64,000 bases of DNA from positions 372,001 through 436,000 of the forward strand of contig NW_026250407.1 of NCBI RefSeq assembly GCF_024521635.1, read 5' to 3'. Source of the stretch: Tricharina praecox (taxonomy: Eukaryota). Positions 9,238 to 36,977 of this stretch are shown here, piece after piece. A model generated the notes under the pieces. The model made no database searches and was not told where the DNA came from. It was given only the letters and a program-made list of their open reading frames with translations. Made by a program: the position numbers and the translations under genes. How positions within the stretch are numbered: the stretch's first letter is position 1; the number at the start of each line of letters is the position of its first letter.

Positions 9238-11553
9238 TTAATAGAACCTGCCCTTCTTAGAGCTTGGTCCGTGGTAGGGAGGAGGAGGCGGCATGCGGTG
9301 ATCAGCAAGCGGGGGAGGAGGCGGCATGCGGTGATCAGCAGGCGGGGGAGGAGGCGGCATGCGGTTATCAGTAGGAGGAGGGGGAGGCGGCATGCGGTGA
9401 TCAGCTGGTGGAGGTGGGGGCGGCATGCGAGAATGCATAGCGGGAGGGGGAGGCTGCGGCATGCCGTAATTGACAACGAGTGGAGGCGGCATGGGGTGGT
9501 TAGGAAGGCGAGGCTGAGAAGGTCCACCATAATGGTTGTGTGCTCCATACGGAGTATGTGCTCCTAGCAGAGGAGGGGGTGGCGGGAAAGACAATCCATG
9601 ACGCATGTGCTGGGAAGGAGGAGGCCGAGCCGAGTGGTAACTCTGCTGGGCCATTTGGACGTTCAATCCGGGGCGGTAGTAGTCTCCTGTGTTGACTCTC
9701 ATATCGTTCGTTGGGGCAGAGATTGGGTTGAATGGGGGGACCCACTGACTGCCCTGGGCTCCACGCGGGTCGTCCTGCTGCTGCGACGGCATCTCCTGTT
9801 GGAACTGCGGTCTCTGTGGCATCTGCTGGTGCCACGGGGCCTCAGTAGGCTTCTGACCACGAGGACCAGTAGGAGGAACGTTGTTGCCATCCGTGAAGTC
9901 CAAGCGGCGGGGTGGCTGCTGTTGCCATGGCGCCGGAGCACCAGTCGGACGGGGATCCCAAGGCCTCGAACCACCGCTGCGGCCAACTCCCTGTCCATCC
10001 TCGATCAAGGCAAGGGGCCGATAGGTATTAGTAGTTGATACAGGAGCTGACCCTCCAAGCTCCAGCATGAGGGACTATGCGGTGTTAGATCTACCACTTG
10101 TGAGAGAAGAGGGACACGAACCTCGTATTCCTTGTCAACGTGGTCACCTTCCTTGCCGGAGTCTGGCCTGCTAGGATTTCTCCAATCCGAGCCCCTCGGG
10201 CGATCACGACAGTCTCGAGCGTAATGACCGCTGTTGCCACATACCCTGCAAACGACGGACGAAATAATATTCTTTTTCTCCGAACAGTCGTATTTGCGGT
10301 GGCCAAGCTCCCCACCTCGAGTTGCTGTCAGATTGCAGTCCCACCGTTCACTGGAAAGAATGGAAGGTTCACATACAGTTTTGGCATGGAGTACCCTCAT
10401 CATCACGAAGGGTTCCGTTCAGCGTTGCAAGCAAGCGAAGTTGATGTCTCTTCAGGTCGTTCTTTTGTTCCGGCACGGAAGCAGCCTGTTGATTCGAGGG
10501 ATTAGTATGGAGCCGCCGGGGAAGTCAAGGATCACGTACTGTTTCAATGACTTCATGGATCAACTTCTTAGCTTTCGCAACATTGAGTTCGTTATCCGAT
10601 ATGATCAAACAGTGAAGATCCTCGTCCAAGTTCGAATCCATCGCCCTATCACTGCCTCCTTTCCCTTCCTTTACTGATCCTTTGCCACGAATAGCGATCT
10701 TTGCTCCGGACTTCTGCTCCATTTCCTTGAGTGTGCCGCCACGAGGGCCAATGAGTAATCCAACTTTTGAGAATCAAAGGTTAGTAACGTTCAAAACTCT
10801 GTCACCGATAACACCAAAAAGGGCATAATAGATCTATAGTGTGGGTCAATAGAAGCAAGGGGAAAGGGATCTAAATACTGAAGTTAATTTCTGGATAATC
10901 GTTAACAGGAATATAGACTTTCTCATGCGTCTTTTGGGGACGCCGATAGTCGGGTGGGGCTTTGTAGTTTGGAATTATCCCAGAGGCCCTGTTAATGAGG
11001 TCATGGCGTTCCGTTTCGAGCCTCTTGCGATAGCGGTACTCGCGAGTGTTGACACGCCTACCATGGCCATCATACTGAGGTGGTGGCGAAGGCGAACTAC
11101 CCGAGGTGTTAATGCGTACTACAACACTTGGGATCATCAAAAAGAGATTGGAGTTAAATACCGAAGCCTCTCAATTGGAATGATGTCACCGATCTTGAGC
11201 TTCTGGGTAATTTCCATAATGCGCACATGCATCGTATAGGCGTCCAGCTGTTCCGGAGACAGCTTTGCGAAGATTGCAGTAGGCAAGCCTACAAGGTCGG
11301 CCACCTGATTGTTTTCCGCCGCATCACCCCAGCGGTTCCCACGCTTGCGTTTCTTGGGTTCGACGACATCCGGGCGGGAGGAGGGGCGACCGCGTCTATC
11401 CTCGAGCTCCACAGAAATAAGTTTGACATCGGCGTTATTGGTATTCCTCGATTCCTGTAGGGGGAGAGACGTAGATTCGGGGTTCACGCGGCCGAACCGA
11501 CGATTCGAGGCCACAGGGATATTATTGGTTCCTGTAAGCTCTTCACGACGCAT
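9238..11553 (-). CDS. MSL5: Branchpoint-bridging protein / splicing factor SF1 (KH-QUA2, zinc knuckles, Pro-rich tail), multi-exon
   Basis: KRKRGNRWG (ULM), SPSPPPQYDGHGRRVNTRE, IPVNDYPEINF-GLLIGPRG, KSGAKIAIRGKGSVKEGKG, CRVCGNSGHYARDC zinc knuckle, poly-Pro C-terminus. Confidence 0.95.
9278..9430 (-). repeat. Coding 33-bp tandem repeat (MPPPPPPADHR units) in the MSL5 tail
   Basis: GGCGGCATGCGG recurs every 33 nt; translation RMPPPPPP(A/T)D(H/N) about 4-5 times. Confidence 0.85.
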
Positions 11554-16924: not shown

Positions 16925-17137
16925 TATGTTGTTTCTCTTGTGTAATCGGTGTGCGGAGGGAAAGTATTGGTGGTTTCCGGGAATATGAAGTGAAATGGGC
17001 GTTTGAGTTGTCGACGGAGCAGGGGGGAAGCTCTCACATAAATGGGAGCTTAGCTCGTTGAGGAAAAGAGGGTAAACGTGCGGCTGTGCTTGTGCTGGTG
17101 TGCTAGGATTACGTAGGATTATGTAATAGTTGTTACA

Positions 17138-18850
17138 GCAGGGCCTTCGAGCTCACTATCCACTCGGACGCACTCGGTCATTCGTGGGTGGGGGAACATT
17201 TGCTACGTACAAAACGAATTATAATACTATTCTTGAAGGCGAGGAAGCCATTGCCTAATTTTAGATTCCATGTCGGGCTTTCGGACGGCACAGGGAAAAG
17301 ACAAAATCACACTCTACATTGCGATCGGGAACCGGATCGATATCAGGCCGAGCTACTCTTGAGATCACAGCATACAATACAGCTCTATGTGAACAATTCG
17401 TCACGACAGCACAGATCGAGGTAAAATCATAGGATACGCTCAATGGTAATAGGTAGTAGTATTTAGTAATACTCCCTGGGACTCGAGTCCCTCGAACTCG
17501 GAGACGAAGGGTGCGTACTTGTTCTTGTGGTTGAAAAAGTGTCGCTTGACACTGCCGGCGCCGCGCTTGAGGGTTTTGTTGGATGGAGCGATGGTGGCTT
17601 CGTCGGAGGAGATGAGGGAGAAGCGGCGCTTATGGATGTTGGCTGACATTTCTTTCGCTGGGCTCTGTGAGTGGGTGAGGCGCAGTGGTGGTGCTGGAAG
17701 TGGTTGGCTTACCTTTTCGGAGGTTGGTGTGTTTGAACTTGTGTGAAGGTGGTGGGAAGATGACGAAGAGTGTGGTGAGCTCGCGCTTTGGCGTGGTGAA
17801 AAGGAGTAGGAGTGGTGGATGATGAAGCGGAGTAGGAGTTGTAAATGGTTGAGAATTGGAGTGGTCAACCAAGTGGTGAAGTAAAGCGTGAAAGCAAGCT
17901 AGCGACTCCAACACCTACACACCTGCACGGTGTATCACTCGGTAAATCCGTTTGCTCGGACATGAATCGCGCTTGACTCAGTCAATGTGTCAAACGCCAT
18001 GATCTGCAAAGGCCGAATGCTATGATGATGAAACAAAAAATCAAAAAATCAATGTGTCAAACCAAATACACAACACGCAGAATCAATCGTAACACTCACT
18101 AGCAATTCAGCCGGCCAGCGCACGTTTTCATGCTCAGTTCCACCCTCGACGACTAGGTATCCGAATTGATCCTTCTGATTTCAGGACGGATGTTCGGATC
18201 ATACCGCGGGTTCAGTTCGATTTGGTGGACTCATCCCGTGTCCACCTTCCACAGGGTACCGCTGCGATCTCAGCCGCGCCAGCAACGGTGAGCATCACTG
18301 ACGAGGTGCATATCTTGTATGTACATCTATGCGGTGCGAGAGCCAAAATCCTCGAGTTCCGACACACGCGAGAATGTTTTGCACGCCATGTTCCCGCGGC
18401 GACGATCCGAGACGACACGGTTCGGTTCGTAAGACGCCTGCTGCTGTAACACCTTCGGTGTGGTAGGTATGCCATTCCATCTTCCGGCAGCCATATATGA
18501 CTTGAATATCACTTCAGACCCGGTTGAAGGGGTTGCGGTGATGTTGCTGGTATATAAAGGATTCCGGCGGGGTTCAATCGGCCAGCCACATGGTTCGACC
18601 CCCAGAATTTCAGAAAGTGCCAGTCGACTGACTGCAGTCCGTGGCGATCAAATGTTGGACGGACTGACTACACACCAACCTTCAGTTTTATGGACTGGGC
18701 TGGATTATCGGGAGCACTGCGGAGTATATGTACATGTAGACGGCCAAGAAGCTCAGCTCCGGCTGGCGGTGCACGGCCTCGCCTAGCCCGCCGTAACTAT
18801 ATAGAGTGCTCTAGGAAGGTTTCAACTTTCAACTTTCAACTTCCAGTCAT
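17138..18850 (-). repeat. Left arm of a large inverted repeat (partner ~29430-31549)
   Basis: Reverse complement matches the right arm: near-identical at 17225-17927 vs 30753-31457, gapped and diverged elsewhere; inner boundary approximate. Confidence 0.95.
17440..17649 (-). CDS. Small unknown protein, copy 1 (MSANIHKRRF...; 69 aa if unspliced)
   Basis: ATG preceded by a candidate 5' UTR intron (GTAAGC..CTCAC..CACAG) and a C/A-rich leader; identical to copy 2 at 31031-31240. Confidence 0.5.
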   Translation of the reverse strand: MSANIHKRRFSLISSDEATIAPSNKTLKRGAGSVKRHFFNHKNKYAPFVSEFEGLESQGVLLNTTTYYH

Positions 18851-19974
18851 CTTTGTTCTTTTGTCTTCGGCCCGATCAGTCCGAACACAAGCCCGAGTCC
18901 GAGCCCAAGTTCCAACGTTACCTGTCGGTATCGGGAAATCCACGCACGCCGGCTAGTTAGTAGAGCACAGGATGGCTTTCCCGGTTTTGTGGTTCTGTGG
19001 TTCCATGGTTCTGTGGTTCTGTGGTTCCGTGGCTGGGTCTGCAGTGAGAGACCCAAAAACGGGATGAGACGATGTGTATAAGCATTAAGGACGAGAGACG
19101 GACCCGGGAACGAATAGACAGAACAGATAGAACAGAATAGAAACAACTCAACGTTGAGTTGTTGACCCTCCACATCGCGTCTGAGCCTGGTCAGTGGTCA
19201 CACCCCATAACACTGAATCGCTCCGTTAAGCCTCCAGAGTCCATACCGCTGCTCACCGCAACTGTCAACACGGACTCACAGAGGAGCCTCGACCCTCGAC
19301 CCCAGCGCTTACTCAGCAGGTAGTCAGCAGGTAGTCAGCTACAGCCACCGCTACCAATCAAGCCACCGCCCTCCTAGCCCACACCAAGCCCAAGCCACAA
19401 TAAGCCCAAGCCTCAGCCCTAGCCCAAGCCACACCACAACCCCAAGCCACTCCAAGAGAAAGGCCGCGCGTCACACAAGCCAGTCGGGAAATTGGGTTTG
19501 ATGCATCCTTGCTGCAAGCAACTTTCCTGCATGCGCGACGCCGCGACCGTCCCCAGACTCCCCCCAGTCCTCACCCCCACGATCGTCTCGGGGCGCAATC
19601 GGATTATCGGACCGTATTTGCACTCTACGTACGACGAGGGGCGGGGAGAGGGGGGGTTGCACTCGCATTTCCCGCCGTCGTTTCGACCCGACTTCGGTCA
19701 CTCAAATCACGTCAATCACGTCATGCGATCATGCGATCCGAGGATTGGTAGATGGAAACCAACATTCATTTGATTTGTGTGGTATCGTTGCAGTAAAAAA
19801 AAAAGAACAGAGAACATTCCCAATAAACACATAAACACCTTTTCATCATCTACATACGAATGAAGAAGAAGCAAGCACAAAAAAAAGAAAGGAAAAGAAG
19901 CCCAACACCATCCTCCACGTCGTACATTACACTGTTATGCTACAGACTCGTTTGATATCGACCACATCCACACT

Positions 19975-20649
19975 CTACAACAGAACGACACCAGCAACGA
20001 CACCGACGACACCCATGACGGAGCCGACCATCATGCGGGGGGCGGCGTTGCCGGAGGCAGACGCCTCAGCGCCGCCAGCGGAGGCGGTCGAGGTCTGGAC
20101 GGCGGAGATGATCGCGGCGGCGGCGTCGGACTCGATAGACTTAGCGGCAGCAGAGGCGAGCGCGGTCTGGGTGGAGAAGAAAGCGGCGACGCCAGAGGTG
20201 CCAGAGGCGATGGCGTTGTGCAGGTCGGCCGAGACCGAGCCCCAGCCTGCGACAGAGCTGTACTTGCTCTCGATCTTGTCGTCGATGTGAGCGATCTTCG
20301 AGGTGGCTCCGGCCCAGTTCGACTCGATGCCGGAGGCGGCGTCGGTCGCGAGCGAGGCTACGCCAGAGGTGATGCCCGAGCCGACGGAGCCGAGGGTTGC
20401 GGTCGCAGCAGACGCGATCGAGCCGATGTTGGACGTCGCATCTCCGATCACGGAGGTGATCTGCCCTCCGACTACAGAGCCGACGATGCTGGCCGCATCA
20501 CTGGATGGTTGTTAGTTATCTGTGCTGCAAAAGGGTGCACACTGTTTGGAAGGGAGGGAGGGAACTAACCCAAGGTCCTGACGGGGGACGTTGGTTGCGT
20601 AGACGGAAGCGGCGGAGAAAAGGGCGAGGGTGATGAACTTGGTCTGCAT
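19975..20649 (-). CDS. Ser/Ala/Thr-rich secreted, probably GPI-anchored cell-surface protein (2 exons)
   Basis: Signal peptide MQTKFITLALFSAASVYA; intron GTTAGT..CTAAC..CCAG; C-terminal SASGNAAPR followed by hydrophobic MMVGSVMGVVGVVAGVVLL. Confidence 0.85.
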
Positions 20650-22568
20650 GTTGAGGTTGTTTGGGGGGTTGTTGTTTGTTGGGTTGGAACGAGGGTGGTG
20701 ATGATTGAGGTGAGGTGTTGTAGTGAAGGTGAAGATGATGATGATGGGGGGGGGAAAGGAGAGCAAAGGTGGGTCGAGGGGGTTCTCTTTATACGTTAAA
20801 GGGGGTGGATCTATTGATTGACTGACTGATTGATTGATCGACGCCAAACGGCCGTCGCCAACCACCTTCCGGCGCACGCCTTGGGCCCTTGGCCCTTGGG
20901 AGGGAGGCGCTCGAGGCATGAAGGGGCGCAGACCCTTGCGTGGCTACGAAGCACCTTGCCGATTCCATTGACCAAGCCTCAGTTCTGGCAATCTACAGCA
21001 CTTACGGTTAGCTGGGAGCACGCACTCCCCGGAAACCTGTACTTGCTACTTGCTACTTGTTACGGGCTAACCACCTGCTACTCTAACTGGGGCCTGGCAG
21101 TGCTACATAGAGGCTTGGAAGTTGGCGGTCACTGGTGACGTCTGCTCTTACTCCCGCCGAGAGTACTGCTATTTCCATCGACAAATACCAATAATCACCG
21201 TGAGAAACACCCCAGAATCTGCACTGTTGCCAACTGCATGGCCACTTTATTGCCGGCTACCCGTGTTCTGTGCTGCTGCTGTGCTCCGAGACTCTACTGG
21301 GGTTACATTCCCAACGTCACTACTTTAAAAGCAAATTGGTGCGGAGGGGGAGGGATTGGGCAGTTGAGTACCGTACCGTACACCACCCTGCTTGCCCTGC
21401 CCTGGGTAGAGTGCTGTGCTGCGCATTCGTGCAAGTCCAGCTGTTGCTGATGGCGTTGATGTTGTTTTTGTTGTGATTGTTGTGATTTTTGGGGATACTC
21501 ACGTCAGATCCAGCTAGAGTAGCCGGGCAGCACTTGGACTAGAGCATCTGCACAAAGCCGTGCCGGTGCTCGCTCCCTGTTTATACATAGCATCCATCTA
21601 CACGAACGCGGGGAGCTCAAGCCTCGCTGGTGATTCTCACTGCGAAGGCTTCACTTCACGTTCACCGGGTCCGAATACATGGCAACCCAGCAGCCATGGC
21701 CCATAACCCAGCAGTCCAGCAAACAAGCTATGTACCCGGCTATGTACCCGGCTTCATACATAGAGCACCTATGTCACTAAGTACCACTCGGGCAAGGCTT
21801 CCACGGCACCGATCACAGCTGGTGCACAGCTGACAGAAGCATGTGTGTGTACTAGTACTCCGGAGTCCACCCAGGTAAGTTTGTAGAGTCCATAACTCCC
21901 CAGCCGGCACTCCTCCCCGGCATCGCAACTCGCAACTCGCAAGCATAAGTATGTATCTACGCCGGGACGAAACAAAGTTCCATACCTTCCATACCTGCTC
22001 CCCCGCGGTACGCCTGCCTGAAATCTTGGTTCACACAGTTTACCTACCTACAAATTACCATGAAGTCGAACCCGAGTATTAACTTCCAACTTCCAAGTAA
22101 CCACCAATCGGCGACCCATCACACGGTAGGGTGAAACCCTTCCTGTCGTGGAACCATTCCAGAATCTCTCTCTGGGTATTCCACCGTTCCGCTCAGCCCC
22201 CCACACGACGTTTCTTGGAGCCGCGCGTAAAGTGTGTGCGCCCAGCGCCGAGCGCCGAGTGGCTGCCCAAGTGGCCAATGGGGCTGGCCAATGGCAAAGT
22301 TCTGCCCCGAGCGCGGGCGCGGGCGTGGGCGCTCTTGGCGGCCTGTGTGTGTTGCACTGTTGCACCGCCGTCTCCGTGTGAACCGTTGGGCAACGGGCAA
22401 TGGGCACGGACGTGCAGAGAAAAAGAAAAAGAAAGCACCTATATCCATATGTTTATTGCAGTAGAGTAGGTAGATCGACAACTGCACATTGAATAACACT
22501 ACATATGATATGATATGATATGTGGATCTGTTGCGGCAGCGGGCTTACGTATGTACAAAACAATACGG

Positions 22569-22638
22569 TGGTTTGGTGGTTTGCTGGTGGTTTGCTGGTG
22601 GTTTGCTGGTGGTTTGCTGGTGGTTTGCTGGTGGTTTG
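22569..22638 (+). repeat. 11-bp minisatellite (GGTTTGCTGGT)n
   Basis: About 6 tandem units visible. Confidence 0.9.
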
Positions 22639-22760
22639 CGGAACGTCACTCGCTCTCGCTCTGGGGCGGAAAGACGCGAGACGCGTACGTACTCCGTCAC
22701 GATCTACGGTATCCAATAAGGTCGGATGCGGTGATCATTAAACGGGAAAACAAAGAATGG

Positions 22761-22785
22761 AGAGAGAGAGAGAGAGAGAGAGAGA
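22761..22785 (+). repeat. (GA)n microsatellite
   Basis: AGAGAG... run. Confidence 0.9.
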
Positions 22786-23430
22786 ACGTTGCATACGGCC
22801 TGGTCTAGAGACACTCTACACGCACACCGCACACGTACTGTGGGATGGCGAATGGTCGGTATGTAACTCCTTCACTACGGATGCGGGCTGTGATTGGAAG
22901 TTAAACTACTAATATGATAGGCTAGACAGAGCAAGATGAGTGAGTGAGTGGTGATGACCACACGACCGAGGAGGAGGAGGAGGTACGGCAGCCATCAATG
23001 CCTGTCCGTACACCCACGTACCTCATTGCTAATACGTGCTCCGCGCAGAGTACTCTACTCTACGCAGGTCTTCAGTCTCCAGTCTCCAGCGTACTCCTAC
23101 TACCTACAGGACCATTTGCGCCAGCGGCCAGCGTGCGGGAGAGCATCGGTGGCCCATGGAAGGCAGAAAAGCCACAACTTACAAGTGTTCCAGATCGGAC
23201 GTGAATTTATCCGCCCCGGTCTCCAGATGCTTGGGAGACGGAACTTGTACCCGCTCGGTTCGAGGTGATCGGCCGATTTCGACGGGGCAGGGTGAGTCTC
23301 GCTCTTATGTACCGGCATACATGCCTGGGTACTTGGGTATTTGGGTAGGTAGGGAGGTATGCTTGGGTAGGTACTTGGGTAGATGCTGTCTGCTGGGTCT
23401 CGTCGCTGGTGAATGAAAGTCTCCACTTCA

Positions 23431-23464
23431 CTCTACCTACTCTACCTACTCTACCTACTCTACT
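23431..23464 (+). repeat. 9-bp tandem repeat (CTCTACCTA)n
   Basis: About 3.5 units. Confidence 0.8.
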
Positions 23465-24745
23465 TCCAACGGACTCGCCACCGAGAGGCATCAGCACATA
23501 CGGTACCGGTACCGGTGTGTAATCTAGATAGGCATGAGCGATTGTCCCACGTCCCGGATATTCTTTTCTCCCTTGGTCGGCGTGACTTCCGACCTGGAGT
23601 ACCGTTCCATGCCTTCCATTCACCCCATGCAAGAACTGTTCTCACGCACAGAAAGTTAGAAAACAACTACCCCACGCGGGCCGAAGCGGTATCGAGCTCG
23701 TCTACCTAGGTAAACTCTAGACTCCAGAGTAGTGATCTCCGCACCAGGTCGTGGCAGCGGCGGCGGAGCAAGTGCCAACCCGTGAGGGAGGTGTGCCGCT
23801 AGGTATCACACATGAGTTGGAGCAGCGGGCTGCGGGAGCAGTGCATTAGCGCACGAGATCCGGAAGATCTAGTGCTTTACTGAGGTGTGCGCACGAAACC
23901 TACCGGCAGGCACCACCAAAACAGCTGCCTGGAGAATCATCATACTAGGGGAGTTCCTGCCTGCGACTCTACTCCTGCAACTCTGTTTTCTGGATCGAAG
24001 ATGCCGTTGCCGTTGCCGATGCCGTTAGGGGGCCGTTTTTGCCGAGGGGAAGATACCCAACTACCCAACTACGGTGTGCTCTACTCTAGATATATGTAGA
24101 GTAGAGTGCAAAAGTCGCTGATCAGCCGTCGGACAGCGGAGCCGTTCCCAGGTAGGTACGAGTTAGGTAGGGCTAAGTACACAGTCTCGACTCGCCACTG
24201 CGAATGCGCGGCAGTCAGCACTAGTTAGTAAGTTGGACTGTTGGACCAGCACTTCCAGTCGCCGGCTGTGTGCACATTGCACTACTATATGCGCTCTCGT
24301 GAGAGCTCTGGATGGCAGTGGAAGCTGGAGCTGACGTCACATGCGGAAGCCGACGATCTGATCTTCCGACCTCGGGTCCCGCCGTCCGAACTTCGAAAGC
24401 TTGTGCTGTGCCACTGCTGCCCGGTTGACTTGCTATATATGTAATTCGCTCACAACATCCGATCAAGGTGATCCTTTTTCAGCTTCGGATAACACGGAAG
24501 CCGTATATATTATCGGCAGGGCACACGAAAAACAAAATCGTCACTGGAGTGGTGGACCGTGATACTGCAGCAAAACAAGCTTTTTGGAGATTCTATATAC
24601 CTATGCAAATCTCGCACCCCCTTGACACCCCAATACCTTAACACCCAACACCCCGTACAAACAAACGCCAATAAACGCAAATGCAAGACAAGCCCCCTCC
24701 CCCCCAATGTCTTGCAGTGGGTATATATGTAAATATCACCTCCGC

Positions 24746-26038
24746 CTACAGCACGAGCCCCGGCCTCTGCTTCCTCTCCTCCAGGATCATCTCGCAAGCC
24801 TTCAACGCGGCCACCACAGCCAGCGACATGATCGGCGTAACAACATAGAAATAGGCAAGCGTTCTAGCCACCATCATCTTCCCGTGCTGACCGACGCCCG
24901 AGACCTCGGCCAGACTGCTCAGGATCATGGCGGGCGGGCCTATCGGCATGAGCATCAGCGACCACCACAGCATGGGATCGGAATCGAGCAGCTGCGTCTT
25001 TGCCGCGACAAGGTACACGAGCGGAATGCTGACGAGCCCCCAGAAGATGAACCGGATGGCGAAGATTGCGGCGACAGCCTTCTTGGGCGGGTTCGGCGAG
25101 GGCAGGTGCTTCGGCGGCGTGAGCGAATCGGAGAGTTTCGAGCCGACAACAAACATCTGCAGCGCCGTGAAAAGGTCGCCGATGTTGCGGAGAGAGGACG
25201 TGAGCCACGCGTTGAGGAAGCCGCCGTCCTGGGTCTCGGCGAAGAGAGCGCGTTGCAGTGGTGGGGTGAGTCCGATGACTACTGCAAAGATCGCCCCCCA
25301 GAGGGTGGGAGTCAAGAGTGAGGAGACGTAGGAGAGCGCCTTTTGGACGCGTACCGGGAGGCGGCCGAACTGGCTCGAGGCGGTTTCTTCCACGGCGGCG
25401 AGTCGGGAGGTGATCGGCTTAGGAAGGAGGGTGGAGTTCTCGTCTGCGTCTTCGTCGTTGTTGTCGCCGTTCTGCTGGTCGTTGTCGCCCTCGCTTTCGT
25501 CCTCGTCCTCGTCCTCCTCCTGTTTCATGTCGTTGCCGAGAATCTTCGGCCCGATCGCGAAGGTGGCCGCATTCGAGACCATGCTGTTGATCAGGAAGAA
25601 GCTTTGCGCGCGCTCCACCGCTGCCGACACATCGTCTCCCGCAATCGAGCGTAGGATTCCCGTGGTCGTCAAGCTTTGCGTCAAGAGTAGCGGCAGCGAT
25701 GTGGTATTATTGAAAGCGCACGCCGCACCCACCCAGCTCGGAAGCTTAAACACTTTCTGAGCCAGCTTGCCCAGCGCCAGCGAGATGACGCTGTAGAGGA
25801 TACTCCAGATGAAAACGGGAACGTAACTCGTGAAATTCCCCGGCTGTATCTGGCTGCCGACGTTGGTGATCAACAGCGCCGGAAGAAACATGTTGACGCA
25901 GAGCGAGGAGACGTTTTTCGCCGTGCCGGCGTCAACCATTCCCATGCGCGCTGCGAAGACGCCGTAGCCGAGCGTGAGGAGAACCGAAAACGCGGCCTGG
26001 AAGGCCCCCAAACATGAGGCCGCAAATGCTGAAGACAT
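24746..26038 (-). CDS. Auxin-efflux-carrier (PIN/PILS-like, Mem_trans) family membrane transporter
   Basis: About 10 TM segments in two halves with an acidic central loop; MFLPALL, AFNNTTSLPLLL, PIGPPAM motifs; start MSSAFAAS at 26038. Confidence 0.88.
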   Translation of the reverse strand: MSSAFAASCLGAFQAAFSVLLTLGYGVFAARMGMVDAGTAKNVSSLCVNMFLPALLITNVGSQIQPGNFTSYVPVFIWSILYSVISLALGKLAQKVFKLPSWVGAACAFNNTTSLPLLLTQSLTTTGILRSIAGDDVSAAVERAQSFFLINSMVSNAATFAIGPKILGNDMKQEEDEDEDESEGDNDQQNGDNNDEDADENSTLLPKPITSRLAAVEETASSQFGRLPVRVQKALSYVSSLLTPTLWGAIFAVVIGLTPPLQRALFAETQDGGFLNAWLTSSLRNIGDLFTALQMFVVGSKLSDSLTPPKHLPSPNPPKKAVAAIFAIRFIFWGLVSIPLVYLVAAKTQLLDSDPMLWWSLMLMPIGPPAMILSSLAEVSGVGQHGKMMVARTLAYFYVVTPIMSLAVVAALKACEMILEERKQRPGLVL

Positions 26039-26401
26039 CGAGTTGGTGGTATCGTACGAGACGTGATGATCACGCCGGGGGGGGGTTCTGTGGCCACACG
26101 ACATGGTGCCGAATACGGTGAGCTTATATCGTCGGTTCGGCATGTAGTGATGTCATGGATCGGCGACGTCAGGGAAGCCGAAACCACGGCAGGGCCAAGG
26201 CACAATCGTTACACATCCTAGCCGCCCAGCCACCCAGTCTTTGACGGACGACTGGCCGACTGGCCGCAGCTGCAAAACACGCTTTTCAAGCCACTTCGCT
26301 TATGCCGTCCAATTGATCGTGATCCAGTTAAACTATTCTATTCACATATATGCTAGGTACTCTACATACAACTCACGAGCACTGCTACCTACCAAGTCAA
26401 G

Positions 26402-28333
26402 CTACATCGAATGAATGTTCGAATCCTTCGTAATCCTCCTCAAATTCTTGCCCCAGATGTACAGCGGGATCGCAAACAGGTATATCACCACTGAGGTTCC
26501 CATGATAGTAGTCATGGGCGCAACATACCCGGAGCTGATGATCCAGTGGGTCAGGAACTCGGCGACTCCATACCCCTACATTCCCACCGAGCACACGTCA
26601 GTCAACGGACGTTCCATCCGCAGCGCTCGCCGCCAGCCGGAGGGAGACATACCCAGAGATTCTTGTTCACAGTGGCCGAAACCAGTATCTCGCCCGCAAC
26701 GGGCTTATACGAATCGATCGAGTAGGTCATGGCGATGGCCGAGATGGCCGAAACCTGGAGGCCGAGAAGCGTGTATCCCACGATCACGATAATCTCCCAC
26801 TTCCACGCATTCTGGTAACCGTATGCGGTCACCAGTGTCCCGACGATGGTGCAGAGAACAAACGGGATCAAGCTCGGAAGCCGCATCTCGGGTTCGCGGA
26901 TGCCGTTGTTTTTGCGCGTGGCCCGCATCGACACCCAGTCGCTGAGCGGGCCGGCGGTTAGCATGCCGATGGTTGCGCCCACGAGCGGCGCGAAGTTCGT
27001 GAGTCCTATGCATCGGTCCAGTCAGTTCAGAGATCAATCAAATGGACGGGTGAGAGCGTACCAACAGCGGTGCTGGACATGTTATACGGCGGGGCGGCAA
27101 ACGCCTGCGACTGCGTAAGATTGACCATGAGGAAGCCGCTCGCGCTCCACGAGAACGCAAACGACGTCCACTCGACAATCGGGAACGAAAACAGCTTGAT
27201 CGGGATCCACAGGGACAACAGCGACTCCTTCTTTGAGGTGCGCCTTATGACCGAGACGAATTGTGATCTGATCGGTGTGCCCTTGCCGAAATATTCGTCG
27301 ACGTGTTCGAGGGCGTGTGGGGGATTCTCCGAGGTGGCGACGGTCGGCTTCTCGGCGTCGGCGTTTGAGGAGTCGGACGGGATCAAGCCACGGTCGTCGC
27401 TGCCCGGGCCCGCGCCAACGAGGTGGCGTCGGTCGTAGTGGGTTTCCGGGTGCAGGAAGAGTTGGAGGACGATCATGACACCGTACAGGACGACGTTGAG
27501 CCACCAGAAGCTCCTCCAGCCATATCGGTCGGTCATGGCCCCGGCAACGATAGGTCCCACCTATACAGGGTGAGCGGATTTAAACGCGGTACTCGGAGGG
27601 ATACACTTACCATCAGCGACCCGAAGTAGCTCCACGTGTAGACGTTCATCCAGAACCCACGCTCGTGGAGGAATTTGATGTCGCTAATCAATACCGGAGG
27701 AAGCGTCTCAGCAGTACCCGCACCCACACCGTGCAGGATGCATGCGCCCAGAAAGGAGCTGTAAGATGTGGCCGTGGCCCTCCAAATGCAAGATCCGAGC
27801 GAGACCGCCGCAGAAGCTATCAGGACCCACCGACGACCGTATGTTGTGGACAGTGGCACCCAGAGGAAATTGCTAAACCCGAGCACAAGGATACTTATAC
27901 CGATCTTGACACAGAATCAGCTTGAGAGGCGGGAGACAACACGGGAAGAAAGAGGCCCTACAAATCGTAGGATCTCAGGTGGACTCCTGTTCCATTCCGC
28001 CATGTACTGGGGAACCTGCGGCGCGATCGCCAAAGGCCCGAATGCTTGAAGGAACGATGTCATGATCATGCTCGACATCACGATGCCCTTCCACAACGGA
28101 CTCCAATTGAGCGGATCTTCTGGATTGTTGGAGGGCTGGGGCACAAGGACTCCATCACTCTTGCTCTCGACGAGGTGGATTCCGGCCACTACATTATTGC
28201 AGCATCAGCTCTGCCAAGTCCCCCGAACAGGCCCGTGGGCATAGATACCTTGCGCCATAATCTCGGTCCCCGGTATGATGTCGACATGGAGGGCGTTCTC
28301 AACCTCGCGGACGATTTCTGGGTCATTCTCCAT
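26402..28333 (-). CDS. MFS transporter (HOL1-like / DHA1 group), multi-exon
   Basis: LVPQPSNNPEDPLNWS, PLSTTYGRRWV, FLHERG, GWRSFWW, PETHYDR, NNGIREPEMRL, YSIDSYKP; start MENDPEIV at 28333, stop TAG 26402-26404. Confidence 0.9.
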
Positions 28334-29429
28334 TCTGATTATTGACTTATCCAGTGACCAGCATAAAAAGGAGCGAGAATTGAATATAAATGGATCCGCG
28401 AAAGATCTTCCCCGCCCCTAGAATTTACTTCGGCTATAGCGTAAGGTGGGGTACATGAAGGTGGACTAAAGCATGGAGGTCACGGAGGCGAGATGGAGGA
28501 CGAATTGCTGTTCGTTCTCTATGGCATGCGGGCGGAATTCCCATGTACCCAGGGACCATACATACTCGTACTCGCACACGAAACCGGCGGGCTGGGAATT
28601 GTCTGACAACTGCCTACATAATATCTCGCTTCCAACGAGCGTGCTTAGTACCAGATGAGTAACTGCGGTGTTGTTCGTCGCCGGGAGTGGTCTCGGGGGC
28701 CCATACTCCACTACTAGTACATAGGACCGTCGGTCCCACCGGCTTGTTCCTTGTGGGGCTGTGGCTGTTGGAAAGTGATCCCATATTGATCACCGCCCGC
28801 TCTAGAATTACCCTGGATTTCAAAGCTGGCCCATACAATGTGACATGCATATATCTGCTATCTAGTAACCGTGCTCTAGACAAACCTCCGCTGCTTTGAA
28901 CCTGGTATGTAACTGGAACGTACCGCAGGTGTCTCTCAATAGCGTCCCAACGCAAGGAGTGTGCGATGACCATGATTCAAACAAATCCCAGTTCCGCCAT
29001 CTCGGACTTTTACATAAGAGGACATACACATAATCGGCAATAGCAACCAGGTGAACCGTGAATCCTCAGCACGCTCGTTGACAAGTACATACCAAATATA
29101 AGAGTCATCTAGGGCGGGACATTCCCCACCCAACCCAGTGCCCACCCCTCCGGTAACTAGGTTAGAGATAAGGTGCATAAAAACGCGCCAAAACTCTCGC
29201 TTACGGTTTGCGGGGTACGGGTAGTATCCGCTTTGGGTTGTGCATGGTGCACCAACCGATCTGGCGCGTACTCTATGTATCATATGAGGTATGTGTGAGG
29301 TGTGTATGCCAATCATCTGCCGGGTATGCCTTCCAGTGCGTTTTAGTATCATACTTGGGATTTTACAAATTTTGATGCTCCGCGTGTTTAGGCAGGGGAG
29401 GGGGGAGAGGAGGGCGACGTTGGCTTGGG

Positions 29430-31549
29430 TGGCTGGAACTTGGAAGCTTGAAAGATCTCGTGAGCACGGGCAATTCCGGTTTTTACGCTCGCAATCGAGC
29501 GGCGAGCAACGAGACGACCGAACGACCGACCGACTGGCTGGATCGCAGGAGCTGGACTTCTTGGCCGTCCACGCGTACTCCAAGAACCGGCAGTGCTCCC
29601 AATAGTCCAGTCCAGTTCGGCTGATAAAATTGAAGGGTGGTGTGTGGTCAGTCCGTCCAACATTTTGCCGCCACGGACTGCCACGGACTGTCACTTTCTG
29701 AAAATTTAGGGTCGAACTATGTGGCTAGGTAGCCGATTAGAATCCCACAGAACTCTGGGGGCCGAACCATGTGGCTGGCCGATTTGAACCCCACTGAATC
29801 CTTCACATAGGTAGAAGCAACATCACCGCAACTCCTTCAACCCTTCACAATCCATCCTTCCATCAAAAATTCAGGTTTCGTACACAGTTGTGGAAAATGA
29901 AATCCTTGGTGCCGGCCACCGAAGGCTTTAACGTTCCGGATGTGTTTCAAGCAAAGAAGCCGGGTCTGAAGGGACGTTCAACTCGTCATATATGGCTGCT
30001 GGAAGATGGAATGGCATACCACACCGAAGGTATTACACGATGGAGATGTCAGACTCTGGAAAAATGTTCTTCACCAATTTCCAACATTTTCCATTCAAAG
30101 TACCTACCAGTCCATGCGGTCGACTGCCGTCCGTCCAGTCCTAGTTACCAGCCGCGCAGAAGGCCACCCAGTTCAGTCCAGTCCAAGCCTCAAGATGGAC
30201 TGGACTGGACTGGACTTTCGGAGGCACTGGACCTGGACCGGTAGTAAAAACCGAAGATCTAGGTAGGTACCCTCGGCAACGAAGTTTCAATCTTTAGTGA
30301 CGGCAACCCCCTTACGAACCGAACAGAACGGCATCGTCTCAGACCGCCGCCGCTGCCGGAACATGGCTTACAAAGGATTCGCGCGTGTGTAGGAACTCGG
30401 AGATTTGGGCTCTCGCACTGCATAGCTGTACATAGGTACCTCGTCCGTGGTGCTCGCAGTTGCTTGCACTGCTTTGGTCGCTGCGGTGCTCCATGTAAGG
30501 TAGATACGGGATGAAGCCACCCCAACCGAACTGAACCCGCGGCATGATCAGAAAATCCGGCATACAATCAGAAGGATCAATTCGGATACCTAGTCGTCAA
30601 GGGTGGAAGTGAGCATGAAAACGAGTGCTAGCTGGCTGAATTGCTAGTGAGTATTTCGATTGATTCTGCGTGTTGTCTATTTAGTTTGACACATTGACTC
30701 TGAGTCCAGCGCTATTCATATTCAAGAAATCGGGTTACCGAGTGATACACTATGCAGGTGTGTAGGTGTTGGAGTCGCTAGCTTGCTTTCACGCTTTACT
30801 TCACCACTTGGTTGACCACTCCAATTCTCAACCATTTACAACTCCTACTCCGCTTCATCATCCACCACTCCTACTCCTTTTCACCACGCCAAAGCGCGAG
30901 CTCACCACACTCTTCGTCATCTTCCCACCACCTTCACACAAGTTCAAACACACCAACCTCCGAAAAGGTAAGCCAACCACTCCCAGCACCACCACTGCGC
31001 CTCACCCACTCACAGAGCCCAGCGAAAGAAATGTCAGCCAACATCCATAAGCGCCGCTTCTCCCTCATCTCCTCCGACGAAGCCACCATCGCTCCATCCA
31101 ACAAAACCCTCAAGCGCGGCGCCGGCAGTGTCAAGCGACACTTTTTCAACCACAAGAACAAGTACGCACCCTTCGTCTCCGAGTTCGAGGGACTCGAGTC
31201 CCAGGGAGTATTACTAAATACTACTACCTATTACCATTGAGCGTATCCTATGATTTTACCTCGATCTGTGCTGTCGTGTGACGAATTGTTCACATAGAGC
31301 TGTATTGTATGCTGTGATCTCAAGAGTAGCTCGGCCTGATATCGATCCGGTTCCCGATCGCAATGTAGAGTGTGATTTTGTCTTTTCCCTGTGCCGTCCG
31401 AAAGCCCGACATGGAATCTAAAATTAGGCAATGGCTTCCTCGCCTTCAAGAATAGTAGGTATTATGATTCGTTTTGAAGTAGCCATTGTTCCCCCACCTA
31501 CGAATGACTGAGTGCGTCCGAGTGGATATAGTGAGCTCGAAGGCCCTGC
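29430..31549 (+). repeat. Right arm of the large inverted repeat (partner 17138-~18850)
   Basis: Matches the reverse complement of the left arm; contains extra insertions (~29840-29950, ~30040-30300) and a ~55-bp local tandem duplication near 29705-29795. Confidence 0.95.
31031..31240 (+). CDS. Small unknown protein, copy 2 (MSANIHKRRF...)
   Basis: Candidate 5' UTR intron 30968-31015 (GTAAGC..CTCAC..CAG); ATG 31031; identical to copy 1; a possible second intron 31162-31297 would extend the ORF to 31421. Confidence 0.5.
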   Translation: MSANIHKRRFSLISSDEATIAPSNKTLKRGAGSVKRHFFNHKNKYAPFVSEFEGLESQGVLLNTTTYYH

Positions 31550-31861
31550 ACCGCGCGAGTGCAACAGTACCGGTGTGTGCCCGAGGACTTGCATACGCAC
31601 GCTCATGCTGAGGCCGTGAGAGCAGCTCGAGGTTTGCGGTGCCCTTGCTGAATTCCAACTTCTATGTGATACCTATTGCAATCTGCAGGCGCTAACTACT
31701 CTACTCCACTCTACACAGACAAACAGAACGGAGCAGCTTTCGGTCTGCCTACTACCTATGATATATCGAGTAAACACCGCCATCAATCAATCGGAATAAA
31801 CTAGAAATATGTATGTACAGATGTATCTAAGTAACCACATAGTTCCATCCACTCAGCTTCT

Positions 31862-32707
31862 CTAGTTACCCGGGACGTACAAATATTCCGAGGCGATCTC
31901 GGAGACCCAGCGCACCAGCAATCCAACAGCATAAGCAAAAGCCCAAATCTGCATCACCACAACAGCAGTAACAATCCATGAGCGAGCTGTCGCCCTCGGC
32001 GCCGCCGAAACGAACCCTCCAAAACCCTGGTTCTTATCCGGCGCCGAGCCCGAGGCCTGTTTAAACGTCAGGTGCAGGAGCGGTGTGCCACCTTCGCATT
32101 CGGGAACAACGTTCTCGGGGAACCTGCCCTGGATGTTGCCTTTACAACCCATTAGCCTCTCGCGAATTCACATCCTCCCTCTTTCTGGGGGTATACCCTT
32201 CGGAGAGTACTCGCAAACAAGCTCGTACGGGAGCTCCGCGCTAAATCCCCGGGCAGCCCATACGGCCGTGCAGTGTGTCAGCGCGCATCCGACACGGGAA
32301 GTGTTTCTCCAGACGATGGCGGAGAAGCGGCCCGTCTCCTTGGCCCACTGCGGGTTGCTCCAGTCGTAGAGCCGCCGCTCGTCGTACATCCGATTGAGCG
32401 CATCTGTGGCAGACAGGCCCCACCCGATGTTCTCGCCCATTCCGGGCGGAGATGAGTGCGGCTGAGGACATGTCGAGCTGTACTCCTGCGCTACGGACGC
32501 GAGATGGGCGTCCCAGGATACGGGTGCTGCGGAGTGCACGGCGCGGATTTGGTTGTGCACGGTTAGGCACTCGCGGATGAAGGATGGGTCGGTGGAGGTG
32601 GTGATGGAGGGGTCGGCGATGGAGTACACAAAGCCCGACAGGAGGAGGAGGAACAGCAGCAGGGCTGCTGGTTGAGACCTCATGTTTTCCCGGTTCAAAA
32701 TGGTCAT
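31862..32707 (-). CDS. CAP/SCP/PR-1 family secreted protein with hydrophobic C-terminal tail, copy A (2 exons)
   Basis: HNQIRAVH, WDAHLASVAQ, GENIG, GRFSAIVWRNTSRVGCA, VCEYSPKGNI; signal-like N-terminus; C-terminal hydrophobic segment. Confidence 0.9.
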
Positions 32708-34575
32708 GTTGACAGCTGGGTCTATACTCTGTGTATGGAATTAGCTTGTGAAGGATGGTCCAGGAAGCTGTGTATGGAGCAGATGGATCATATACTGAGC
32801 TGAGAAAGGTATGTTTTATACTTGTTGTACCGAAAGGTTCCTACAAAAGCCCGGTGGATGTGGGAAATTGAAAAGCTGGAATATCCTTCTAGTATGACAA
32901 GCAGAGTCGATGAAGGAGGTTGTGATCACATCTCAACTACTCACACGGCCGGAAGTTTAGGGCTCCCACCCCTCGCCCTGTGAATAATTGCTGATGAACG
33001 AGGTTTCCTCAGTGTCGTCACATAGGATAACTGTTCATCCTCAGACACAGATCCAATCTCAGATAATAACCTGCAGAAGGGTGGAGACGGGGGGGCCCCT
33101 GGATTTCCGGCCGTGTGAGTAGAATCATGCCAGTGTCTACCTACGTGGTTCATGAGCGTAAACGGCGGGCCATCCGAGGTTGGCGAGTGATACACTATGC
33201 AGCAAGGATGGACATTCGCCAAACGCTCGCCTGGCTGGTTCCAGTGGGTACCATTTGCTAACATGCTTACATAGAGTACATAATCTTATCAAAGTATCCC
33301 GACGCCGCCGATACGGTCCCATCATCTTGTCCTCGGAGTTAGCTGAGGTCTCGGCGGTGGGCTGTGGGCGGTGAGCGGGCTCATTGTCCGCACGTTATAC
33401 TGGCCGGCTGGCTGGTAACGGTCCATCCTTGAGGCTTCTCAAGACAGAAAACGACATCGCCCCCGGCAGCAGTATCATACCGAGTCCGCTCTATATATGC
33501 ATTGGGGGCCGTGGTGGCTCGGCAGCATGCGTAGCAAGATCCCCGTCGGAAAACGTACATATGTGCTGATGTATTCTCGTTCTCGGTCGATGGCCGGGAC
33601 CCGTAATCTTACGCAGTAACTTGGGAATGGATGATTTGGCGAGATTTGTAACGCACTTGTGGCAAGGCGGTGGAGGAGCTGTCGGCGAGAGGAGGAAGTG
33701 AAGGAGGACTCCTGTCGGCGGGAGAAACCGAATGTGGTTAGTAGTGGGCAATGGGCATAAACGTTGGTAGGCCTCAACTTTGGCGGCCATGGCGGGGTCG
33801 ACCAATTGAGTCCGGCAGGTTTTTCTTCTTTTTCTTCTTTCTTCATCATCCTCTACAGAATAGACGATCAACCTCTATCTCCTCTTTCTTCTGTGTGTGC
33901 TCTCCTCTCGATCCCGCCTCCGGCCTGCCAGAGGGGTGTTGAAAAAAGAGCCATCTGCAAAACCCTGCTCGTGCGTTCTCCTGCGTTCATGTCCTTTACC
34001 TTTGCTGTCGTCCAGTATTGTGGCCCGTATGGCGGACAAGTCGCACGAATTAGTAGGTACCCTTCAGCAACACAGGTCCATCGAAGCTAATGTTTGCTAC
34101 AGTAGTGGAGATGCCGGCCGGCCAGCCTTGAGCTGTACTCTTCGATGTACTGCCAAAGACCTACGACTCGGGATGCCCCACATGAGCGGAGGAGGAACGA
34201 AAATACTCGTAAACACGTGATGTTACTCGTCCCATCCCAAACACTCCAGCCGTTTTGCATGACGTATCACTCGCCAACCGATGGCCCCCGTTTACGCTCA
34301 TGATCCACGCAGATGGCTTAATTTTGACAGTCGAGATGCGACCACGACACTCGCGGCCTTCTCGGTCGACTCCGCCTGTCATAGAAAGATGTTCAACATG
34401 TTCAATTCTCCGTAGCCACCCGCCTTTTGTATGTACATAGGAACCTTCCCGCGCAACAAGCATAAAACGAACAGCGCAGTCCAGCCAAAGCCTGCTCTTG
34501 CTTCCTACACAGCTTCCTAAATCATCATTCACCAGCTAATTCCATACACCGAACACAGATCAGTTAGCTATCAAC

Positions 34576-35346
34576 ATGACCAATAACCAGCATAACACGA
34601 AATACCAACCAGCAGCCATGCTGCTCCTCCTCCTCCTGCCGGGTGTCGTCCACTCCACCTCCTCCACCGACCCAGCATTCATCAAAGAATGCCTAGACAT
34701 GCACAACAAGATCCGCGCCGCACACTCAGCGCCCCCTCTAACGTGGGACGCCCGACTCGCAGACGTAGCGCAACGTTACAGCGCAACGTGTCCGACGGGC
34801 CACTCGATGACGCCGGGGCTAGGCGAGAACCTCGCGGGTGGGTACGCGACAGCGACCGAGGCGCTGCAGGCAATGTGGGACGAGCGACAACTCTACAACT
34901 GGAATGACCCCAAGTTCTCGAAGGAGGCGGGCCACTTCACCGCCATCGTCTGGCGCGATACCACACACGTCGGTTGCGGAATGACAGATTGCTCCCATAT
35001 TGGGGATGGGAACGGGAACCACTTTGGGAACTCGTTCGTTTGCGAGTATACTCTGCATGGTAAACCCCCCTTCCCCCCCTTTCACCCCCCCTCTGAGACC
35101 TAACTAACTAACAGGATCATGGCAGGCAACGTCGAGGGCCTATTCCCGCAGAACGTTATTCCCGAAGGCGGCAAACCGCCCCCGAAGTCCGATCAGGGCC
35201 CGCCGGGCTCGCCTCCAGATAACAACAATCTAAATTCCGGCGAAGTCTCGGGGGCGCCGGCGGCGGCGACCGCTCGTCCGTGGGGTGTTGTTGCTGTCAC
35301 TGTGATGCTGCTGGTGTGGGGCTTTGCGGGCGTGTTGAGACGCTGA
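34576..35346 (+). CDS. CAP/SCP/PR-1 family secreted protein with hydrophobic C-terminal tail, copy B (2 exons)
   Basis: HNKIRAAH, WDARLADVAQ, GENLA, GHFTAIVWRDTTHVGCG, VCEYTLHGNV; intron at the same position as in copy A. Confidence 0.9.
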
Positions 35347-35941
35347 TGTAGTTACCCACTACATACTTTGTACATACCTTGGGCATCTGGCATCGTCATT
35401 TTTGTACATACATAGGCACATAGATCACTCGATTGAGTGGATGGAACTACTTGATTAGGTACATCTGTGCATACATATTCTACATAGTTTATTTTGATTG
35501 ATGGCGGTGTTTACTCTGTATATCATGCCATAGTAGGCAGGCCGAAAGCTGTTCAGATCTGTTCGTCTGGAGCAGGGTCTGAGATTGTAGTAGTTGGCGC
35601 CTACAATAGGAAGTGTAGGAAGTATATACCCGCTGGAACTACTAGTAGCCAGGCGAGCGTTTAACGAGAGCCCGCTTGTCATTTAATCGTTCTTTGGCCC
35701 CTACTATTTATCTTTACATAGTTGTTTATTGACTCTGATTCTCTCCCTCTCTCTCTCCCTCTCTCATCACCATTCTCCACGCAAAGCCATAGGCCCATAG
35801 GTAATAATAATACTACATTCTTAATCATTCATATATACACATCGCACACATCAGACATGTCTCTCGTAACCAACCAACCGCCCAAGTACCAACATACATA
35901 CACACACAGGTACCTAATCCCTATGATGATGCTCACCCCGC

Positions 35942-36977
35942 TTATTCTTGAGCTTCATGATCTCGACGAGCTTGGCATTGACGCGCTCCCACTTTCCCCA
36001 CGAAAGGTAGTGCGCACCTCCAGGCACAATCTCGAACGACCCCAGCAGGTCGTTCGCCTCCAGGACCGCCCTGGTGCCGTTCGCGTGCACGTCGACCGTG
36101 TAGATCTCGTCCAGTTCGCCCTGCCACTATGTTAGGCGCTGCGTCGGGGTGTGTGGGGGAGCGAGGGGCGGGAGCGGAACTTACGTGCATAACATCGATC
36201 TTGACGTCGAGCTCTCCAACGCGAGGGACGATATCGTCTCTCTCGAGCAGCTGATTCGTGACCTTTACCATGCGGGCCTCATTCTCGGGGGAGCCTCCGT
36301 AGCGTTCCTTCCACGTCGCGATCCAGTGGTTGCCAGCATCGATCTCGCGCTGCGTTGCGTCCGGCGAGTTGATGTCGACGCCGAAGCCTGCCTTGTTCAC
36401 GAGTGCGAGGTTCTCTTCGATGTACGGGAAGTCCGTGGTTAGGTAGGTGATCGACGCTTTGCTCTCCGCTGTCTCGACCAGGATCGAAGACCCCGCGTAG
36501 ACGATCCGGTTCACGAGGCGCGGGCGCTGCAGTGCGAGCCGCGTCGCGATGAAGCCGCCCTGGGAGGTGCCGCAGAAGGTCGCTTTGGGGATGTCGAAGT
36601 GGTCCTGGTGGATTCGTTAGTTTTCCGGTTAATCGTATGGGGGAGGGTGTTTTTACAAGAAGCAGGCCAACGTCCGTAGCGGTGTCCCAGTAGGTGAACT
36701 CGTCTCTTCCGGTGGTATTTCCATGTCCGTGGATATCAACGGCAATCATGTTCCATTTCTGGTCCGCAAGCTGGGGATCCGTGAATTGCGGCTCAAAGAA
36801 GGAGCTGTCGGTGATGAACGGGTGCAGGAGGACCAAGGTCGGCAGGTCCGACTTTGGCACCGCCGGCGCCGACCGGTAGCCCAGTTGGACACCGTTGGTG
36901 AGAGAGAGGAGCTGGAGGACTGGGAGCTGCATCTTTCCAGTGGATGCGGATGAGGTGGTGGTGGTAGTGGAAGGCAT
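35942..36977 (-). CDS. Alpha/beta-fold hydrolase (3 exons)
   Basis: PTLVLLHPF, IAVDIHGHGNT, nucleophile elbow GTSQGG, C-terminal GGAHYLSW; two short introns. Confidence 0.85.

Follow-up and report, generated by a model that had tools for sequence, protein, structure and literature searches.

Inverted repeats bracketing a multi-gene block outside the mating-type (MAT) locus have been described for the flip/flop (FF) region of Saccharomyces chromosome XIV, an unregulated system (Salzberg et al. 2022, PMC9731477). According to the accessible part of that study, to which our statements about it are confined, the FF region lies near the centromere, spans 24 kb with 15 genes, and has 4.2-kb arms that are homogenised throughout and carry sporulation-specific genes. 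Both orientations occur in populations and in at least four species; they are stable in the laboratory and have no phenotype known to that source. Left and right arms cluster per strain, and crossovers are suppressed in orientation heterozygotes. Here, we describe a locus at 17138-31549 of a 64,000-nucleotide stretch of Tricharina praecox DNA (contig NW_026250407.1, positions 372,001 to 436,000 of the forward strand; the window below, with all positions counted from its first letter). The FF region is its closest known counterpart, and the locus is built like it. In both cases a multi-gene, non-MAT block lies between inverted repeats that carry lineage-restricted genes, and the arms are near-identical within the genome, with conversion proposed as the cause. 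Unlike the FF region as described in that source, the Tricharina locus is homogenised over 0.7 kb of ~2 kb, encloses three genes, resides in a filamentous fungus and is known in one orientation.

Inversion-type mating-type loci are known from Ogataea (Hansenula) polymorpha (PMC4238957) and Sclerotinia sclerotiorum (PMC3574095). As far as the accessible text of the two papers goes, inverted repeats likewise bracket a block of a few to ~18 kb there. However, that block contains the MAT genes, and its inversion is regulated (by starvation or meiosis) and silences or truncates a gene. Here, the block contains no HMG-box match, and a flip by crossover in the core of the arms would spare every open reading frame (ORF) and promoter, since the inner arms are inverted along with the block. 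Hence, the mating-type analogy drawn in the original prediction for this locus does not carry over. A further comparison is offered by the inverted duplications associated with inversions, which Ranz et al. 2007 (PMC1885836) derive from staggered breaks. As in the cases covered by the available portion of that paper, non-repetitive, gene-containing inverted duplicates lie at both ends, and one arm sits at an apparently derived junction. In contrast to the situation here, their model accounts for the origin of the arms but not for a core far younger than the arms. Our literature search, with most subscription papers beyond its reach, found no non-MAT flip/flop locus in a filamentous fungus.

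Judged from its sequence, the locus is a genuine inverted duplication that carries genes and has a core homogenised by conversion. Overall, we favour, with some reserve, the explanation that an old inverted gene duplication had its core recently homogenised by gene conversion, that any flips are most likely rare accidents, and that one orientation probably dominates. The last point is a prior and not a result.

The inverted arms and their core

Self-BLAST returned an inverted match between 17138-17995 and 31549-30684 (868 bp, 96.7% identity, E 0). Further inward, 18049-18429 matches 30697-30320 at 81.6%, and blocks of 78-85% extend to ~18763/29545; from there to ~18850/29430 the global alignment retains faint likeness only. 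The 1.7-2.1 kb inverted repeat of the original prediction is thus a real inverted repeat, but it is near-identical over 703 bp only, the rest being 7-19% diverged. In the global alignment the arms are layered rather than uniform. The outer fringe (17138-17224 on the left, at the 3' end of the arm gene, and 31458-31549 on the right) has 6 mismatches in 86 aligned sites (7%) and 3 gaps. It adjoins a homogenised core of 703 bp (17225-17927, minus strand, and 30753-31457, plus strand), which comprises the leader, leader intron, ORF and 3' untranslated region (UTR) of the arm gene and differs between the arms by one substitution (at 30982, in the intron) and one 2-bp indel (near 31276). The left (17928-18762) and right (29545-30752) inner arms are diverged by 7-19% in patches, or 13.3% overall on 745 aligned sites, with many indels; the left one lacks ~270 bp and other blocks that are kept on the right. 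The core edge is sharp, with divergence jumping from 0.1% to 19% at 17927. No target-site duplication was found at the outer ends of the arms, as had been predicted. As a chance control, we sampled 800 kb outside the window, equal to 2% of the genome (38.4 Mb): 340 kb from the flanks of the window, 60 kb surrounding a third copy of the arm gene, and two stretches of 200 kb chosen arbitrarily. None of the 5 inverted matches of at least 200 bp found there reaches 95% identity (range 71.5-85.1%).

Arm likeness exceeds the age expectation for the core alone (0.14% versus 13.3% divergence). At the inner-arm rate of 13.3%, one substitution or fewer in 703 sites has a binomial P of ~4e-42, and even at a rate of 5% the value is ~1e-14. 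Selection on the 69-aa protein encoded in the core does not account for this identity, because the tract spans the intron, UTRs and silent sites; these are free to vary, and the third copy of the gene is ~80% identical. Proximity alone does not homogenise either, since an adjoining inverted pair of CAP-domain genes, our internal control, stays ~70% identical throughout and has no homogenised core. The claim that conversion explains the identical cores therefore stands, with 1 change in 703 against ~13% in the adjoining arm, sharp edges, and intron and UTRs included in the tract.

The last conversion is at least 17 times younger than the duplication (95% bound; point estimate ~90 times). This ratio would fit repeated conversion, but may also reflect a single recent event. 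Three points weigh against our interpretation or narrow it. Identity shows no steady gradient away from the core (7-19% in patches), and repeated conversion is therefore not demonstrated. A scan of this type preferentially flags single recent events. Finally, the soil metagenome X1 (see below) is near-identical to the window and so tests the assembly, not conversion across strains. The third copy, taken as an outgroup for past exchange between the arms, was uninformative (shared alleles 5:1 versus 4:6 by hand count, P 0.15). The arms carry no signature of repeat-induced point mutation (RIP): a product index of 0.5-0.86 and a substrate index of 1.1-1.2 are not RIP-like by the thresholds in the accessible text of PMC3778014, in line with the weak RIP described there for Pyronema.

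We propose the following course of events. An old inverted duplication of a ~2-kb transcription unit placed a small orphan gene at each end of the three-gene block, and the arm copies drifted to ~13% divergence while taking separate insertions and deletions. To judge from the identity profile, non-allelic gene conversion between the arms, 12.8 kb apart, then overwrote the 703-bp tract with its ORF, leader intron and UTRs and halted at heterologies on both sides. Occasionally, conversion may have been resolved as a crossover that inverted the block, a mechanism established in general, and any such flips would most likely be rare accidents with little effect.

In a genome search with the core, all 4 candidates matched, and they trace to three loci; a pattern for the start of the ORF (up to 3 mismatches) found these loci again and none further. 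The third copy, 76-80% identical, is located on a different contig (G000:C27:483360-484806) between unrelated flanks. Most of its ORF is lost, and a ~0.8-kb fragment (L004:700-1490; G000:C27 ~483640-484430) sits in it in sense; this fragment resembles the 3' end of a fungal long interspersed nuclear element (LINE). The core pattern had 0 matches in metagenome contigs, which we searched for the arm of relatives. The innermost arm, in contrast, is dispersed mobile DNA. It contains an element (29591-30229) that resembles a miniature inverted-repeat transposable element (MITE), with ~25-bp terminal inverted repeats, nested repeats and many dispersed relatives; this MITE-like element predates the duplication, since it is partly preserved in the left arm. 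A 53-bp insertion found on the left only (17996-18048, plus strand) is the 3' tail of a dispersed A-tailed retroposed element, is bracketed by a 14-bp duplication (17982-17995, 18049-18062) and has at least about 20 dispersed matches at 86-96%. These dispersed-repeat counts are lower bounds, with 40 of 71 and 40 of 50 candidates scored. The original prediction had named an ordinary dispersed repeat family as a possible refutation; this objection fails for the core, with its three genome copies, and holds for the innermost arm. Separately, we observed a short A-tailed retroposed family (L109, L110, L112), whose L110 copy is ~150 bp long and has a 10-bp target-site duplication.

Nine public runs were available, all as short-word contigs. 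Four of them (X1, X2, X3 and X5) were aligned to 27000-36000, which covers the right arm, and the comparisons rest on the contig pieces and difference rows listed. X1, a soil metagenome, differs from the window once in 8 listed pieces, and we take it as an independent sample because it is a metagenome with one difference. It holds left-arm alleles at 30560-30656 and third-copy alleles at 30765 and 31465. Its right inner contig has 0 differences and stops at 30782, 30 bases into the core, the precise point of the fork that the core edge produces in a 31-mer graph. Another X1 contig (record 5, 30944-33075, one difference) crosses the right outer junction into the unique flank, and no unexplained differences were found in the X1 core among the rows listed. 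X1 depth is 13.3-13.9 in the core versus 5.4-6.5 in the interior bins 27000-29106. This contrast counts for less than it may seem, as depth cannot be read as a copy number, and high values (11-14.4) also occur in the bins at 31515-33019, right of the core, largely because the mean depth of one contig is spread over them. With both arms present in a second sample, and with a fork at the edge of the tract there too, mis-assembly of one arm, another refutation that had been named, is unlikely.

The orphan gene of the arms

Each arm contains a spliced small gene with a 69-aa ORF (left copy 17440-17649, minus strand; right copy, P0001, 31031-31240, plus strand), and the two proteins are identical (100%). 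A 55-nt GT-AG leader intron (30968-31022, plus strand; 17712-17658 in the left copy) lies directly upstream of the ATG. The same GT-AG joint is spliced in all three RNA-like runs (X2, X3, X5), each of which comes from a different study, and the intron is retained in the soil DNA metagenome X1. X2, X3 and X5 behave like RNA because they have zero depth over 34224-35728, where X1 has some. Against treating them as RNA, the RNA label was guessed for X2 and X3, that of X5 reads 'DNA?', and contigs of all three cover the predicted introns of the enclosed MFS gene unspliced (27000-28944). Antisense transcripts, retained introns or DNA are possible sources of the latter contigs.

The X2 contig also splices an upstream intron (30263-30392) in the right inner arm and has 16 unaligned letters ahead of a CAG acceptor at 30710. 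Together, these features suggest a long right-arm leader, and we infer a further intron at 30609-30709, whose donor at 30609 is altered in the left inner arm. The right inner arm would thus form a long, ATG-rich 5' leader, transcribed in one run; after splicing, this leader has no long ORF and a total of 14 ATGs. At the 5' end, the contigs of X2 and X5 match the right-arm alleles. The contig of X3 begins exactly at 30753, the first base common to both arms and the point at which the word graph forks if both copies are present, a hint, but not proof, that the left copy is transcribed too.

The 69-aa protein has no match in Pfam or in the Atlas. A homologue search with P0001 gave 1 match among 1 candidate (37-121 aa), P0002, which is labelled Tricharina praecox. 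Letter for letter, P0002 equals the arm sequence read with splicing; it is possibly this very locus as annotated, is not independent of P0001, and serves here for the taxon only. The X2 contig runs unspliced through the second intron of P0002 (31208-31329), and the 69-aa form is therefore the one seen. No Rfam family matched in the window, and folding of the arm-gene leader is weak (z -2.1). In the first 12 codons, 5 of 6 changes relative to the third copy affect third positions (P 0.018), which is modest evidence of coding constraint on the 69-aa ORF.

The enclosed block, its neighbours and gene order in relatives

The enclosed genes were correctly predicted in kind and strand, all three lying on the minus strand. 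They encode a secreted Ala/Ser-rich protein of the glycosylphosphatidylinositol (GPI) type (19975-20649; anchor assigned by eye, homologues in Trichophaea and Pyronema, no Pfam match), an intronless PILS-like membrane transport protein (24746-26038; PF03547, E 2.6e-25) and an MFS transporter with several introns by sequence (26402-28333; PF07690). The predicted absence of a transposase or recombinase was borne out as well, with 0 matches to any Pfam family in 69 further ORFs of at least 85 aa at 17000-31700. A tandem array of ~8 copies of an 11-bp unit also lies inside the block (22563-22650). On the left, the arm starts ~210 bp upstream of the start codon (16924) of the minus-strand gene RIC1 (PF25440). 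Among named organisms, those with the closest PILS and RIC1 proteins belong to Sphaerosporella, Pyronema, Wilcoxina and Trichophaea, genera of the Pyronemataceae, and the host is best read as a fungus of that family.

In Trichophaea hybrida, RIC1 is 49-51 accession entries from the GPI and PILS orthologues (KAF8542696, 745, 747), and in Wilcoxina mikolae it is 54 entries from PILS (KAF8249283, 229). The T. hybrida GPI and PILS genes are 2 entries apart, and, counted from RIC1, GPI precedes PILS, as in the Tricharina locus; it is from this spacing of 2 that accession order was taken as gene order. In Pyronema, the RIC1, GPI and PILS genes are far apart or on different scaffolds. These data suggest that GPI and PILS are old neighbours, whereas the RIC1-GPI adjacency seems derived, with the left arm at a lineage-specific junction. 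A PILS scan yielded 8 loci, with one near relative only (L013, 78% DNA identity), and the searches in relatives turned up no outgroup copy of the arm. The 3.4-kb locus L013 has no match to MFS, GPI or the arms, and MFS is absent within 1.3 kb of its PILS gene; upstream of PILS it carries, by eye, a broken remnant of a Tc1/mariner-like transposase (L013:1-400).

The CAP pair used as a control begins 135 bp right of the right arm. It consists of two head-to-head CAP-domain genes in an older inverted pair of ~70% identity (31684-33212 versus 34245-35605), in which upstream and downstream DNA also match. The right CAP gene has no contig depth in X2, X3 and X5. The spacer of the pair contains a high-copy dispersed repeat (33667-33927) with a summed depth in the hundreds in 3 of 4 runs and many loose ends. 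A short motif just inside the core edge (30730-30760) reappears at the inner ends of the CAP arms (33185-33205, 34255-34280); a promoter motif common to these sites or the end of a repeat would be possible identities. Elsewhere in the window, a tandem array of a 33-bp unit lies in frame within an ORF (9245-9518). The region 40115-41752 contains a ~610-bp tandem pair at 78% (40354-40950 and 40965-41565) with acidic ORFs, one of which matches the MuDR transposase DNA-binding domain (PF03108, E 6.5e-9). A Het-C heterokaryon incompatibility gene (50440-52110; PF07217, E 7.5e-183) lies 19 kb right of the block, and a tRNA-Leu call within it (50913-50988) is probably spurious.

Orientation of the block

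By its geometry, the block is able to invert by crossover in the core, and a flip would alter only which copy reads toward RIC1. We therefore weighed our preferred explanation, an old duplication with a recently converted core and rare flips, against a standing polymorphism of the Saccharomyces chromosome XIV type, in which recurrent conversion with some crossovers would keep both orientations among isolates today. We regard such a polymorphism as conceivable but doubtful. The same caution applies to its fuller form, a non-MAT flip/flop locus in a filamentous ascomycete whose 0.7-kb conversion tract keeps re-inverting the block, so that both orientations coexist and orientation picks the long- or short-leader copy reading toward the RIC1 promoter. 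The yeast-like anatomy argues for it (gene-bearing homogenised inverted arms, a fast-evolving orphan gene and no recombinase, by the accessible text of PMC9731477), as do the relative youth of the core, which fits repeated conversion, and the figure of ~4% of conversions resolving as crossovers cited in the same text. However, no listed short-read contig from the four runs crosses the core of the right arm with unique flanks on both sides, which leaves the second orientation without support; in the available account of the Saccharomyces FF region, short-read assemblies also break at the arms (PMC9731477). Reciprocal left/right chimeras are not evident among the rows listed for the right inner arm in one DNA sample. 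Moreover, the identical tract measures 0.7 kb, whereas that of yeast has 4.2 kb, and diverged DNA adjoins it on both sides. Crossovers are less likely where homology is short and interrupted.

Could the arms instead be the scar of a fixed inversion, created by staggered breaks at a single inversion or by stepwise duplication and no longer recombining? Of 29 Drosophila inversions in the accessible part of PMC1885836, 17 are marked by inverted duplications of non-repetitive DNA; such duplicates lie at both ends of the block here, and the left arm sits at the apparently derived RIC1-GPI junction. Yet a scar alone does not explain a 0.1% core within 13% arms, and the T. hybrida order RIC1-GPI-PILS, the same as here, lends no support to an opposite ancestral orientation. 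We thus find this account improbable on its own, though under our preferred explanation a scar may be the origin of the arms. Still less credible is the proposal that the arms represent a mobile element in two copies, or that they terminate a composite transposon with the three genes as cargo. The third copy with its unrelated flanks and the MITE-like and retroposed pieces of the inner arm, with dozens of dispersed matches, point that way; the core, however, occurs at three loci only, consists of a spliced gene whose coding sequence shows signs of constraint, and is accompanied by neither a target-site duplication nor a transposase. We give next to no credence to a regulated DNA switch with two expression states like the mating-type flip/flop, even though 250-bp arms suffice for the meiotic MAT inversion of Sclerotinia (accessible text of PMC3574095) and the inner arms differ upstream, so that a flip would exchange the inner arm facing the RIC1 promoter. 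All 9 HMG-box matches lie outside the block, at distances of >170 kb, and a core crossover would truncate nothing and move no promoter off its gene; no recombinase was found. An alpha-box search had 0 matches anywhere and is thus uninformative, and inspection of a two-exon HMG locus on contig C1 did not identify it as MAT. An assembly or polishing artefact, with one arm false or the cores merged, seems just as far-fetched. Near-identical repeats are prone to false assembly, but X1 contains left-arm, right-arm and third-copy alleles, has a core free of unexplained differences among the rows listed, and, in the aligned range of 27000-36000, crosses the right outer junction.

If both orientations exist, the flip/flop principle of yeast would have a second fungal case, independent of the first and with a homology of 0.7 instead of 4.2 kb. 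The locus would then offer a cheap, PCR-scorable test of the minimum homology that sustains recurrent inversion, and would bear on why orphan genes sit in such arms, a question left open in the accessible part of PMC9731477. If orientation is fixed, the result would be more modest: a clean, sharply bounded conversion tract with an unconverted inverted pair alongside as a control. Either way, an expressed orphan microprotein gene is defined.

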